In this document: positions 1-6,000 of the stretch, in pieces | Numbering within the stretch: the stretch's first letter is position 1 | How the letters are laid out: every line of letters begins with the position of its first letter | UHGV virus genome: UHGV-0044336 | Source: a virus | Length of the DNA stretch: 49,831 nucleotides | Strand: one strand, 5' to 3' | Position numbers: made by a program

Positions 1-3000
1 TCTTTGGAAGAACCTTGAGATTCAGCACGGTTGCCTTTGAATTCATATTCCCACTGACCGAAACCAGTCAGTTGATCGTTGATTTGGGTTTCACCTTTGA
101 AGCCAAGACGGGCATAAGTAGTATCACCATCATCTGCATCATTAGAGGAGAAGTAGTGCTTGGCATTAACTTTCCCGTATAGATCCAGCTTGTTACTGTC
201 TTTATTATAAATTTCAGCTGCCTGAGCAGACATCGCCATCAGTACTGATGCAGCTACAGCAGAAATTGCCACTGTTAATTTTTTCATTGTACGCCCTTTT
301 TTTGAACTATTATTAAAAAATGATGTCACTGCGCGATAAATATTCATCTAATCAATGTGATTATTTCAAGATGTAAGTTTTAGTTTCTCATTTAATTTGT
401 GAAGTAGATCTCTATTTTTATCTGAACCTTTTCTATCTAATCCTATTCATGGCTCTTGTCTGAACAAAAATAAATCTATTAGCTAATTTATATTAATGGC
501 ACTTATTTATAAGTGCTCTATAATTCTTTATCTTAATTTAAACAAACTAAAAATAACATCGGAAATTATTAACTGGTTATTTGTTGAAGTTTTCTTATGC
601 ATTTGTGGTGGTGTTTTGAACACTCGGTGGCATTCTCACAAATATCATTTAGTAGTTTACGTACGTAAAAAATTGGTTATGCTGTTAAGAGTGGTTACTT
701 CGTCACACAGCTTAACCCCGCCGTCGAGCGGGTTTTTCCATTTTTTGAGTCTCGATATTAGCTGATAACCCAATACCTGAGTTATTCACTGACTCCGAAT
801 CTGTTACGTTTCTGCCTTTATTGCGATACGTAGTATCCCCTTAATTTACACCCGCTTTGTCTGCGAGGTGGGGTTATGAAATCCATGGATAAGTTAACAA
901 CGGGTGTCGCCTATGGTACCTCAGCAGGTAGTGCCGGGTACTGGTTTTTACAGTTGCTCGATAAAGTCACGCCCTCACAGTGGGCGGCAATAGGTGTGCT
1001 GGGTAGCCTGGTATTTGGCCTGCTGACGTACCTGACAAACCTTTATTTCAAGATTAAAGAAGATAAGCGCAAGGCTGCGAGAGGTGAATAATGCCTCCAT
1101 CATTACGAAAAGCCGTTGCTGCTGCTATTGGTGGCGGAGCAATTGCTATAGCATCAGTGTTAATCACTGGCCCAAGTGGTAACGATGGTCTGGAAGGTGT
1201 CAGCTACATACCATACAAAGATATTGTTGGTGTATGGACTGTATGTCACGGGCATACAGGAAAAGACATCATGCTCGGTAAAACGTATACCAAAGCAGAA
1301 TGCAAAGCCCTCCTGAATAAAGACCTTGCCACGGTCGCCAGACAAATTAACCCGTACATCAAAGTCGATATACCGGAAACAATGCGCGGCGCTCTTTACT
1401 CATTCGTTTACAACGTGGGTGCTGGCAATTTCAGAACATCGACGCTTCTTCGCAAAATAAACCAGGGCGATATCAAAGGCGCATGTGATCAGCTACGTCG
1501 CTGGACATATGCTGGCGGTAAGCAATGGAAAGGTCTCATGACTCGTCGTGAGATTGAGCGTGAAATCTGTTTGTGGGGTCAGCAATGAACAGAGTAACCG
1601 CGATTATCTCCGCTCTGGTTATCTGCATCATCGTCTGCCTGTCATGGGCTGTTAATCATTACCGTGATAACGCCATTACCTACAAAGCCCAGCGCGACAA
1701 AAATGCCAGAGAACTGACGCTGGCGAACGCGGCAATTACTGACATACAGATGCGTCAGCGTGATGTTGCTGCGCTCGATGCAAAATACACGAAGGAGTTA
1801 GCTGATGCGAAAGCTGAAAATGATGCTCTGCGTGATGATGTTGCCGCTGGTCGTCGTCGGTTGCACATCAAAGCAGTCTGTCAGTCAGTGCGTGAAGCCA
1901 CCACCGCCTCCGGCGTGGATAATGCAGCCTCCCCCCGACTGGCAGACACCGCTGAACGGGATTATTTCACCCTCAGAGAGAGGCTGATCACTATGCAAAA
2001 ACAACTGGAAGGAACCCAGAAGTATATTAATGAGCAGTGCAGATAGAGCTGCCCATATCGATGGGCAACTCATGCAATTATTGTGAGCAATACACACGCG
2101 CTTCCAGCGGAGTATAAATGCCTAAAGTAATAAAACCGAGCAATCCATTTACGAATGTTTGCTGGGTTTCTGTTTTAACAACATTTTCTGCACCACCACA
2201 AATTTTTGCTGCATCGACAGTTTTCTTCTGCCCAATTCCCGAAACGAAGAAATGATGGGTGATGGTTTCCTTTGGTGTTACTGCTGTAGGTTTGTTTCCA
2301 ACAGTAAACGTCTGTTGAGCACATCCTGTAATAAGCATTGCCAGAGCGGCAGAAAACAACATTTTTTTCATCTTATTATCCTGCATTGTTAAAAACGGCA
2401 GAATCCTATGTGACAACAATTAAACGATAGTTAAATGGATTGATGAAAATTAAAACTACACAGGTGGGCTCAGACTATTGGAGGAAGTTGGGGACACTCA
2501 GAATCCTGTGGAATGAAATAAACCGGTCTATCCGTCCATTACCCTTTTAGCTGCGCTGTATCGTCGCCGTATTCCCGCATTAACCATGACCGTAGCCCGA
2601 CGGGGAATTCCTTCTGCGTGAGTGTGCGGGAATAATTAAAAACGATGCACACCGGGTTTTTACCGCGTTAATGATTCGCGGGTTTATCCCGGTGCGATGG
2701 TGGAAGAAACAGGAAGCTGTATTACAGAAAGTGCTACTACTGTATCCCGATGCGATGTATGTAATGTGAGTCAGATAATGGCACAGGATGTGGTGATGTG
2801 GCAGTCTGGAACACAGGATATATTGTCAGAATAAGACCCGTAGGAATAAAAATGAAAAGACGCCTTTTACTACTTTTTCTGTTATCTGTCCTGGCAGTGG
2901 GATGCTCGCAGCAAAAAGCTGATGAGCCCCGGCAATTAGTGACGGTGTATCCACGATATCCGGAATATGCTGCAGCAAATTATATCAAGGGGCTGGTTGA

Positions 3001-6000
3001 GGTTAAGTTCGATATTGGTGCTGATGGGACTGTGACACGGATCGTTTTTCTCCGCTCAGAGCCTCATAATTTGTTTCGTGATGAAGTGGTGAAGGCCATG
3101 GCGAAATGGCGATTTGAAAAGAATCGCCCCTGTCAGGGAGTGAAGAGACAATTTATCTTTACGCCGTCACGTCCTTGATGCTTCCAGGTAGAGAGGGGCT
3201 GGAAGCAGGAGAAAAATGAAAGAGCCAGCGGTTATATTTTTGTCATGGCTGACGAGGAATGATGGAAGAAGGCGTTGTATGCCACACAACGCCTCACTGT
3301 TCATTTCTTCTTTTTCTCTGGTGGAACCCGATGAATAAGAGTTGCACTGGTTTCCGATGAGATGGCGATATACTCGGGCAAAGTATGCTGGCAGTTTTCC
3401 AACTGGTCAAAAATACCTGCTCTCGTCTGTTGCAATGCCTGCAGCATGCGGCGGCAATGCGCCTTGCTTTTACTAACCATCTTTCCTTCCTCTATCAGTC
3501 GCTGCGTGAACTCATCATGGAATACCAGGTAAATGCGGATGTTATCGGTTTTGGCTACGCAGCATAGTACAAAACGGACAGGTGCATCCCGGGACGGGGG
3601 AGGCGTCACATGTCCCTGTGATGGTTGTTCCGGGTAATGTACTGTGTGGGGCATAAAAATGTCCGATAATTTTACTTTCTACCGCAGTTAGTTGATTCGT
3701 TGGTCCTGGTAGCACATTGGGCGAGGATTTAAATGCCAGGCAACTGAAGGATGATGTCGCAAGGGAGATAGCGAGAATATTTCTGATTTTCATTTGATGA
3801 TGCCTCTGTGTGAAATGACGGTAAACGACGCACTTGTGCCGGCACATAATAGCAAGCACCATAATAGATCAGATTCGATTCTTGCTGTAAGTGATAATTA
3901 TTCTCGTTTTCGGGTCCTTTCCGTCGATCCAACAGGTTACGGGGCGGCGACCTCGCGGTTTTTCACTATTTATGAAAATTTTTCAGGGAAAATCGTGTCG
4001 GTACTTCTCGAATATAACTTTTTGTTTTTTTTAATATTGCATCCGTAAAGGTCCGACATGAAAGTGTCCGAAAATGCCTTTTTCTGGCGTTTTCATGTCG
4101 GGCCTTGTATTTGATAATGGGTTGTTTTCATGAAGGTTAATAAAAAGAGGCTTGCCGAAATTTTCAACGTGGACCCGCGGACGATTGAACGCTGGCAGTC
4201 TCAGGGACTCCCTTGCGCCTCCAAAGGTAGTAAGGGCATTGAATCTGTATTTGATACTGCCATGGCAATTCAGTGGTATGCGCAGAGGGAAACTGATATC
4301 GAAAACGAAAAGCTCCGCAAAGAACTGGACGATTTGCGTGCGGCAGCGGAGTCAGATTTACAACCCGGCACCATTGACTATGAACGCTACCGGCTCACAA
4401 AAGCGCAGGCAGATGCGCAGGAACTGAAAAATGCCCGTGAAGACGGAGTAGTGCTGGAAACTGAACTGTTTACCTTCATTCTGCAACGTGTGGCACAGGA
4501 GATTTCGGGGATACTTGTGCGTGTGCCGTTGACATTACAGCGTAAATATCCGGACATTTCACCATCACACCTTGATGTGGTGAAAACTGAAATCGCGAAA
4601 GCCTCCAATGTTGCAGCTAAGGCCGGTGAAAACGTGGGCGGGTGGATCGATGATTTCAGACGCGCAGAAGGCAGCTAATGCAGCCGGTGCGATAGCTACA
4701 GGGCTTTTATCTCTCATTATTCCTGTTCCACTGACGACAGTTCAGTGGGCCAATAAACATTATTACCTTCCTAAAGAGTCGTCTTATACCCCGGGGCGAT
4801 GGGAAACACTGCCGTTTCAGGTTGGCATCATGAACTGTATGGGCAACGATCTGATTCGCACGGTTAACCTGATTAAATCTGCCCGTGTTGGTTATACAAA
4901 GATGTTGCTGGGAGTGGAGGCTTATTTTATTGAGCATAAATCACGCAACAGCCTTCTTTTTCAGCCCACGGACTCAGCTGCTGAAGATTTTATGAAATCT
5001 CATGTTGAGCCAACGATAAGGGATGTTCCTGCATTGCTGGAGCTGGCTCCATGGTTCGGAAGAAAACACCGCGATAATACGCTCACCCTGAAGCGTTTTT
5101 CCTCCGGTGTGGGGTTCTGGTGTCTGGGTGGTGCGGCAGCAAAAAACTACCGTGAAAAATCCGTGGATGTGGTCTGTTATGACGAGCTTTCCTCGTTCGA
5201 ACCGGATGTTGAAAAAGAGGGTTCGCCAACCCTGCTGGGGGATAAACGTATTGAGGGCTCTGTATGGCCAAAATCCATTCGCGGCTCGACGCCTAAAATC
5301 AAAGGCTCCTGCCAGATCGAAAAAGCCGCTAACGAGTCGGCACACTTCATGCGTTTTTATGTGCCCTGTCCGCACTGTGGGGAGGAGCAGTATCTGAAAT
5401 TTGGCGATGATGCCTCGCCTTTCGGTCTTAAGTGGGAGAAGAATAAGCCAGAAAGTGTTTTCTACCTTTGTGAGCATCATGGCTGTGTGATCCATCAGTC
5501 TGAGCTTGACCAGAGTAACGGGCGGTGGATCTGTGAAAACACGGGCATGTGGACCCGTGACGGCCTGATGTTTTTCAGCGCCCGGGGTGATGAAATTCCG
5601 CCGCCGCGCTCCATCACTTTCCATATCTGGACGGCGTACAGTCCGTTCACCACCTGGGTACAGATTGTCTATGACTGGCTGGATGCACTGAAAGATCCCA
5701 ACGGCCTGAAAACCTTTGTGAACACCACGCTGGGCGAGACCTGGGAAGAGGCTGTGGGCGAAAAACTCGATCACCAGGTGCTGATGGATAAGGTTGTGCG
5801 TTACACGGCGGCGGTGCCTGCCCGGGTGGTTTATCTGACGGCGGGCATTGACTCGCAGCGAAACCGTTTTGAGATGTATGTCTGGGGATGGGCTCCGGGA
5901 GAGGAAGCCTTTCTGGTGGATAAAATCATCATTATGGGGCGTCCCGATGAGGAAGAGACGCTGTTACGTGTGGATGCGGCGATCAACAAAAAATACCGCC

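Follow-up and report, generated by a model that had tools for sequence, protein, structure and literature searches.

In structures of TonB bound to BtuB or FhuA, the Ton box of the receptor joins the beta3 region of the TonB C-terminal domain (CTD) as an added strand. The TonB-dependent transporters are major entry routes for phages of the T1 and phi80 types, colicins, microcins, and siderophore-antibiotic conjugates, and some phages carry proteins that act on these routes: Llp of T5 and Cor of phi80, N15, HK022, and mEp167 are small phage lipoproteins in the inner leaflet of the outer membrane, which close FhuA off from within the periplasm. When made in vivo, TonB's own periplasmic domain is also reported to inhibit transport by FecA and FhuA, as the title of a 2001 study by Howard, Herrmann, Stratilo, and Braun (J Bacteriol 183:5885) has it. 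Here, we analyzed a gene at positions 2852–3178 (plus strand, stop codon included) of a 49,831-nucleotide stretch of the virus genome UHGV-0044336, the whole of which is referred to as the window. The gene encodes a 108-amino-acid protein, MKRRLLLLFLLSVLAVGCSQQKADEPRQLVTVYPRYPEYAAANYIKGLVEVKFDIGADGTVTRIVFLRSEPHNLFRDEVVKAMAKWRFEKNRPCQGVKRQFIFTPSRP in translation, which combines a predicted lipoprotein signal peptide with a TonB CTD and is referred to below as the TonB-C lipoprotein. The gene is identical to CPT_21_73 of phage 21 and to RefSeq WP_000830178.1. The open reading frame (ORF) and its similarity to TonB are already annotated publicly, as “TonB C-terminal domain protein” in phage 21, as “TonB family protein” in RefSeq (e.g., WP_000830178.1, beside iss) and elsewhere, and as “TonB fragment” or [quoted passage not shown] in other records, so that the observation itself is not new. 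As a reading of its function, which we favor tentatively and rate at somewhat below an even chance, the protein may be a TonB decoy at the outer membrane that blocks access to Ton boxes and, hence, the entry of TonB-dependent phages and colicins.

The signal peptide and lipobox (MKRRLLLLFLLSVLAVG-C18, 2852–2905, plus strand) contain the segment LFLLSVLAVGC, which satisfies the PROSITE-type lipobox rule, and the codon of Cys18 lies at 2903–2905. Because the +2 residue is Ser and not Asp, and thus no Lol avoidance signal is present, the protein is predicted to be sorted to the outer membrane, and its lipidation is likewise expected from the sequence. The rule was also satisfied in 19 of 21 family members, with L091 and P0041 still ending their signal peptides in Cys, and the +2 residue in the family was Ser, Thr, or Ala and in no case Asp; the outer membrane lipoprotein with an LAVGC lipobox that the initial annotation had proposed is thus well supported as a prediction. 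The lipidated Cys is followed by a tether of seven residues, SQQKADE (2906–2926, plus strand), which leads to P26, the first conserved residue of the domain and the equivalent of TonB P153. In the measured family members, the distance from the Cys to the PxYP motif was 15–23 residues, except in P0139, where it was 51. The short tether, together with the kept lipobox, would place the domain where the Ton boxes are.

The TonB CTD itself, residues 26–104 (2927–3163, plus strand), was recognized by Pfam, TIGRFAM, and BLASTP as well as in a structural model. Pfam TonB_C (PF03544) matched residues 33–99 with 49.2 bits against a cut-off of 24.6 (E = 7.3e-13), and TIGR01352 (tonB_Cterm) scored 47.4 bits against a cut-off of 27.1. 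In the BLASTP alignment with E. coli TonB (P02929, CTD at about residues 150–239), residues 23–103 of the query aligned with TonB 150–230 without a gap, at 41% identity over 81 residues, so that residue n of the query corresponds to TonB residue n + 127. The best sequence matches in the PDB were the TonB CTD entries 1u07, 1xx3, 2gsk, and 2grx, with E values of about 1e-14. An AlphaFold2 (AF2) model of the 108-residue protein, built from an alignment of 27 sequences, had a mean predicted local distance difference test score of 88, with values above 96 across residues 30–100, and showed a strand at residues 28–30, a helix at 38–42, strands at 47–55 and 61–70, a helix at 76–83, and a strand at 94–103. 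A Foldseek search of the PDB with this model retrieved 1u07, 2gsk_B, 1xx3, and 2grx_C among the top matches, with a root mean square deviation of 0.7–1.2 Å over 76–84 residues and target-normalized template modeling scores of 0.86–0.92. The top matches were all TonB CTDs, including TonB bound to BtuB (2gsk_B) and to FhuA (2grx_C), and domain III of TolA scored far lower. The fold is therefore predicted to be of the alpha-beta-beta-alpha-beta TonB C-terminal type. The likeness of the mature part to the TonB C-terminus, noticed in the initial annotation, was in this way confirmed at the level of sequence, and the structure prediction that it had suggested as a check yielded a model about 1 Å from receptor-bound TonB. 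Among viral predicted structures (BFVD), no significant match to this fold was found.

The strand that corresponds to the Ton-box-pairing region is also present. The beta3 strand, residues 94–103 (CQGVKRQFIF, 3131–3160, plus strand), aligns with TonB 221–230. In an alignment of family members with TonB CTDs, the invariant columns were TonB P153, P161, Y163, G174, V176, G186, P198, F202, and W213. The aromatic core is likewise kept, with F53 aligned to TonB F180, F88 to Y215, and F103 to F230. The likeness to TonB thus extends from homologous sequence and the YP motif to the aromatic core, beta3, and, in the model, the fold as a whole.

What the protein shares with TonB ends at this domain. The full-length TonB equivalog models (PRK10819) gave 45–69 bits against cut-offs of 265–448, and neither an N-terminal inner-membrane anchor helix nor a Pro-rich spacer is present, as residues 1–18 form the lipoprotein signal peptide and the domain starts at about residue 26. 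Judged by its sequence, the 108-residue protein is a TonB_C-domain protein and not a TonB; unlike TonB, it would be lipid-anchored to the opposite membrane, and it ends seven residues earlier. No exbBD genes were found near the gene, whose neighbors are lysis genes, bor, and terminase. Because it has no membrane anchor and no proline-rich spacer, the protein is not expected, given the established mechanism of TonB, to couple to ExbB/ExbD and the proton-motive force.

From these features, we infer binding to Ton boxes or to TonB, and with it inhibition and a role in exclusion. The tether of about seven residues would hold a complete TonB CTD at the periplasmic face of the outer membrane, where the domain would occupy the Ton boxes of TonB-dependent transporters such as FhuA, FepA, Cir, BtuB, and others; alternatively, it could target incoming group-B colicins through their Ton boxes, or bind the TonB CTD itself. 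Having no inner-membrane anchor, spacer, or ExbB/ExbD partnership, it would occupy these sites without delivering energy and would act as a natural dominant-negative TonB. The expected outcome would be a reduced TonB-dependent entry of phages of the T1 and phi80 types, colicins, microcins, and siderophores. Such a protein would resemble the engineered periplasmic TonB fragments of Howard et al. in being a TonB CTD in the periplasm without energy coupling; those are soluble, overexpressed laboratory constructs, whereas the phage protein is natural, predicted to be lipid-anchored, and diverged from TonB. It would also resemble Cor and Llp as a small phage lipoprotein at the inner leaflet of the outer membrane blocking entry at a TonB-dependent transporter, but these are specific to FhuA, whereas a mimic of TonB would be generic to all Ton boxes. 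Descent from the Cor/Llp type was considered and rejected, as no match to the Cor PHROG 1119 was found and the fold search of the PDB returned only domains of the TonB/TolA type. A search with the defense-system models of PADLOC-DB yielded no family at E ≤ 0.1.

The gene is widespread and well preserved. Phages PhiR57_1 and PhiR63_2, as well as the classical lambdoid phage 21, match this region at 100% identity. Among 5426 complete E. coli genomes, 1225 (23%) carried the gene, at an identity of at least 99% in 1203 of them, and a sister allele with about 72% identity occurs in Stx1a phages and others. An exhaustive profile-free search returned 2795 relatives, and many of the best were short proteins of 105–135 residues made up of just a signal peptide or lipobox and a single TonB_C domain, at 35–46% identity. 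By source name, these relatives came from Salmonella enterica (at least 1000 contigs), Klebsiella, Gibbsiella, and Rahnella, and genome scans added relatives in Raoultella, Erwinia, and Serratia. No relatives of P0041 were found in viral contigs. A further copy, L098, lies on a 418-bp contig assigned to Modestobacter excelsi and matches the first 67 residues at 100% identity; the actinobacterial assembly is almost certainly contaminated here with E. coli or phage DNA.

The older labels “TonB fragment” and “partial tonB-like” raise the question of whether the gene is simply a functionless remnant of a captured 3′ fragment of tonB. Frameshifted or truncated alleles do occur: P0003, with 130 member sequences, shifts frame at codon 98 and thereby loses beta3, and P0005, P0025, P0027, and P0032 are disrupted as well. 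Yet the pairwise ratio of nonsynonymous to synonymous substitution rates (dN/dS) in the family was 0.11–0.24, and because of these values the family is, as far as substitution patterns tell, under purifying selection and not a decaying tonB fragment. In addition, the exact intact protein was present on at least 1000 contigs, the lipoprotein signal peptide is a new acquisition that relatives of only 35–46% identity have conserved, and regulatory boxes are conserved in the relatives, all of which makes a remnant very improbable. If it is true that beta3 binds Ton boxes, P0003 would provide a natural loss-of-function control.

Evidence for a link to iron came from the sequences upstream of the relatives. 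We scanned 250 nucleotides upstream of the start codon in each lineage for Fur boxes, using a core of 15 positions, TGATAATnATTATCA, and the 19-mer GATAATGATAATCATTATC, and compared the matches with those in 500 shuffles. The Salmonella type (L082, L086, L088, and L090) had a match of 15/15, equaled in 0/500 shuffles, and in L082 (about 5960–5990) an 18–19-bp perfect palindrome abuts an extended −10 element, TGtTAGTAT. The “MLKF” type (L091–L096 and L102) matched at 14/15 and 15–16/19 (0/500 shuffles), the Serratia locus L101 at 14/15 and 17/19 (1/500), and the Raoultella locus L099 at 13/15 (3/500). The phage loci of the Klebsiella/Raoultella types (with L110–L141 among the boxed loci) had a conserved GATAATGTTGATTATCATT in the same place, with matches of 11–13/15 and 12–14/19, against a background in which at least 12/15 is reached in about 2.5% of windows. 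In the Salmonella-type, MLKF-type, and Serratia relatives, the boxes are strong and lie 14–50 nucleotides upstream of the gene, whereas those of the Klebsiella/Raoultella types are moderate. Found in four lineages other than that of the window, these Fur boxes tie the family to iron and TonB physiology, and, taken as a whole, the family gives the impression of iron-regulated cargo under a promoter of its own. Co-regulation by Fur in the relatives fits a stoichiometric antidote that is made when FhuA, FepA, and Cir are derepressed.

The same boxes are open to another explanation, which we regard as unlikely, namely, that the protein is a modulator of the TonB system that aids iron acquisition or signaling, by biasing the transporters' share of the limiting TonB or by docking TonB at the outer membrane, and thus a factor of lysogenic conversion and fitness. 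The Fur boxes of the relatives imply that the protein is made at times of greatest need for iron uptake, further cargo of benefit to the host (sitABCD and bor/iss) is present in this phage, and E. coli, Salmonella, and Klebsiella carry the gene very commonly. On the other hand, a TonB CTD that is tethered to the outer membrane without a route to the proton-motive force could, by occupying Ton boxes, just compete; we know of no positive role for isolated TonB fragments, and those made in the laboratory inhibit.

The proposal of a TonB decoy has also been considered in a broader form, which we find rather doubtful: the protein would be iron-regulated in most lineages and would cap all Ton boxes or trap TonB, so that lysogens would be tolerant to TonB-dependent phages, group-B colicins, and siderophore-microcins, and in phages of the phage 21 type the cost could be offset by Sit, encoded on the same genome. 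Sit is a TonB-independent importer of iron and manganese. The sitABCD genes, encoding a ZnuA-type binding protein, an ABC ATPase, and two ABC-3 permeases, are located at 25991–29440 on the minus strand, between the tail-fiber region and the integrase gene (31664–32806). Each of the seven phage records in which the TonB-C gene is identical contained sit, but since 20 further sit-positive records were without the gene, the co-occurrence may just reflect relatedness.

Several observations weigh against a TonB decoy, the first of them in the domain itself. Residue Q160 of TonB, the classic suppressor site for Ton-box mutations, is replaced by Tyr33 in the TonB-C lipoprotein and by Leu in the 72% variant; TonB R158 and R166 are also changed, and V225 and V226 of beta3 are replaced by Lys98 and Arg99. 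At position 99, almost every one of the closer phage-family members has Lys or Arg. As a speculation, Lys98 and Arg99 might contact the conserved acidic first residue of Ton boxes, an idea that depends on the parallel pairing of the TonB and Ton-box strands. Further, three copies, L099 (Raoultella), L100 (Erwinia), and L101 (Serratia grimesii), lie outside recognizable prophages. The Serratia grimesii copy is located between ycgN-like and dsbB-like genes, as judged by eye from ORF translations; chromosomal core-gene status was rejected for this locus, as its synteny is not common to L102 from another Serratia species.

Both the altered side chains at Ton-box contacts and the copies outside prophages would also be expected of a lipoprotein with an envelope or virulence function for which the TonB_C fold is a mere scaffold, for example, one that interacts with serum or host factors like Bor/Iss or binds another envelope component. 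The gene adjoins bor/iss, and the family motifs YPxYA and SEPxHLFD are unlike genuine TonB. Nevertheless, the predicted fold is nearly superposable on receptor-bound TonB, beta3 included, the Fur boxes in the relatives point to iron, and the very short tether would keep the domain at the outer membrane, with peptidoglycan hardly within its reach. Weighing these points, we consider it quite unlikely that the fold serves as a scaffold alone.

The remaining points against a TonB decoy concern its dose, its cost, and the expression of the window copy. Transporters far outnumber TonB under iron limitation, so that a decoy acting on Ton boxes alone would have to be made in large amounts. The gene is kept in 23% of complete E. 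coli genomes, though a block of TonB would cost iron uptake. A literature search found no experiment or functional study on the TonB-C lipoprotein. Self-exclusion through a TonB-dependent receptor was dropped as an explanation: the tip of J is 99.5% identical to that of phage 21 J and 56% identical to that of lambda J, and no cor gene was seen after J. The window copy has no Fur box, its best match of 10/15 being equaled in 258/500 shuffles, which is chance level; together with the 96% variant L073 and the 72% sister L076, it forms a group in which 10/15 was equaled in 199–278/500 shuffles. The sequence GATAATGG at 2774–2781 agrees, by eye, with only 10/19 positions of the 19-mer Fur consensus. 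A consensus scan of the window copy detected no plus-strand promoter upstream of the gene and no terminator downstream, which makes any expression of this copy in lysogens conjectural.

A looser scan upstream of the window copy gave a weak extended −10-like element, TGtCAGAAT (2824–2832, plus strand), as the sole candidate. In the 72% variant (L075–L081), an extended −10 element, TGtTAGAAT, lies about 40 nucleotides upstream of the gene and overlaps or is then followed by GAATAAGACTTATTC, a perfect palindrome that resembles the operator of some regulator. A 13-nucleotide deletion in the window removes the right half of this palindrome (window 2827–2840). In lambda, Q-modified transcription from pR′ passes through the lysis genes and cos. 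Because the gene shares its strand with S-R-Rz and precedes cos, we infer by analogy that the window copy is transcribed at least by Q-antiterminated late transcription.

The neighborhood of the gene is that of a lambdoid lysis-cos region. The gene starts with the ATG at 2852 and ends with the TGA at 3176–3178, within an enclosing ORF listed at 2798–3178; a Shine-Dalgarno sequence, AGGA (2842–2845, plus strand), lies 6 nucleotides 5′ of the ATG and is the ribosome-binding site in the phage 21 annotation. As stated in the initial annotation, the gene is divergent from bor and near cos. The bor/iss-type lipoprotein gene (Pfam Lambda_Bor, E = 1.7e-30) is on the minus strand at 2078–2371 (or to 2419), at a spacing of about 430–480 bp, and the right genome end of phage 21, which marks cos, maps to about 3941, followed by Nu1 from 4130 and A. 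Bor/Iss is likewise a small outer membrane lipoprotein of lambdoid prophages carried as cargo in this slot, but it belongs to an unrelated family (PF06291), is encoded on the opposite strand, and has a role in serum resistance. On the 5′ side lies a cassette of pinholin, signal-anchor-release (SAR) endolysin, and Rz/Rz1, with the spanin genes Rz at 1585–2046 and Rz1 at 1805–1987 forming part of the phage's own lysis set. Directly 3′ of the stop codon, a hairpin with an 8-bp stem and an 11-nucleotide loop is found at 3180–3206 (plus strand); as it has no U-tract, it is not a canonical terminator. Two opposite-strand ORFs further downstream, at 3301–3480 (minus) and 3385–3567 (plus), overlap and match PHROG 4843 and 3744, respectively, both at E values of about 1e-46; likely just one of them is a real gene, and the plus-strand ORF is the one annotated in phage 21.

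The TonB-C lipoprotein also matches PHROG 1267, labeled “Rz-like spanin”, with E = 5e-43. An o-spanin of the Rz1 type is a short, Pro-rich lipoprotein whose gene is embedded in, overlaps, or is adjacent to an i-spanin gene, and a u-spanin has a lipobox and a C-terminal transmembrane helix. The phage protein shares with Rz1 only that it is a small lipoprotein encoded close to a lysis cassette: its mature part is a globular domain of 90 residues with 7 Pro and no C-terminal hydrophobic helix, its gene is neither embedded in an i-spanin gene nor paired with one, and the phage has its own, separate Rz/Rz1 genes. A spanin identity was therefore rejected, and the label of PHROG 1267 probably arose from closeness to the lysis genes.

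In all phage contexts examined, the TonB-C gene was located after the spanin genes and before the packaging genes, and it was on the strand of the lysis/late operon in all loci except L100 (Erwinia) and L101 (Serratia). In phages of the phage 21 type, bor lies between the spanin genes and the TonB-C gene; in many bor-less E. coli prophages, the unit begins 10 nucleotides past the Rz stop codon and 33 nucleotides past the end of detectable Rz homology. The 72% variant occurs in an HK97-like packaging context, the Salmonella type lies directly 3′ of holin, endolysin, and Rz/Rz1 genes, and further spanin-adjacent settings were seen in the MLKF type and in a Klebsiella phage.

This arrangement bears on a further explanation, that the protein is a late-expressed lysis accessory that would act at or near lysis, for example, by conditioning the outer membrane or by neutralizing receptors in debris to spare the progeny, and not in the lysogen. 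In its favor, at least five phage lineages have the gene directly 3′ of Rz/Rz1, on the same strand wherever spanin genes were seen, with a gap down to 80–130 nucleotides, or 33 nucleotides to the junction block described below in the bor-less E. coli phages; the window copy has no detected promoter of its own, and PHROG 1267 bears a lysis label. However, the lysis set of phage 21 (pinholin, SAR endolysin, and Rz/Rz1) is complete and experimentally defined, the protein is without spanin features, the Fur-box promoters of the relatives argue for expression independent of the late operon, and the slot after Rz is a general cargo site that also holds bor. A late lysis accessory thus appears improbable.

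A conserved non-coding junction block of 165 bp (2552–2716) delimits, on the left, the unit with which the gene travels. Homology to the window begins exactly at 2552 in dozens of loci, and the window and the 72% variant share about 92% identity over the block, which is thus better conserved than the adjacent coding sequence. The block was found in 432 phage records, among them those of lambda, HK629, and Stx phages without the gene, and it looks like a shared lambdoid junction and not a dedicated leader. In the annotation of HK629, a minus-strand promoter directed at bor is placed in the equivalent block. A long hairpin with a 10-bp perfect inner stem (TATTCCCGCA/TGCGGGAATA) is predicted in the block; a search for a structured RNA or riboswitch there gave no Rfam match, a fold z-score of −2.1, and one-sided changes only. 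The phages with the junction block but without the TonB-C gene give the presence/absence pattern of a cargo gene. The designation of the gene as a moron in the initial annotation agrees with this distribution between phages, but a promoter and terminator of its own were not found for the window copy, where the gene is co-oriented with the late operon, so that the designation is at most tentative for this copy.

If a TonB decoy is indeed encoded here, the “spanin” label of PHROG 1267 would be corrected. The protein would belong with the phage lipoproteins that disable receptors and, unlike the receptor-specific Cor and Llp, would represent superinfection exclusion at a shared energy-coupling step. 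It would also be a natural outer membrane-anchored binder of Ton boxes, usable as a probe of TonB, and might affect phage-therapy host range and susceptibility to “Trojan-horse” antibiotics. A single gene would then provide broad-spectrum exclusion and bacteriocin tolerance to the roughly one in four complete E. coli genomes that carry it, and its relatives occur in Salmonella and Klebsiella.

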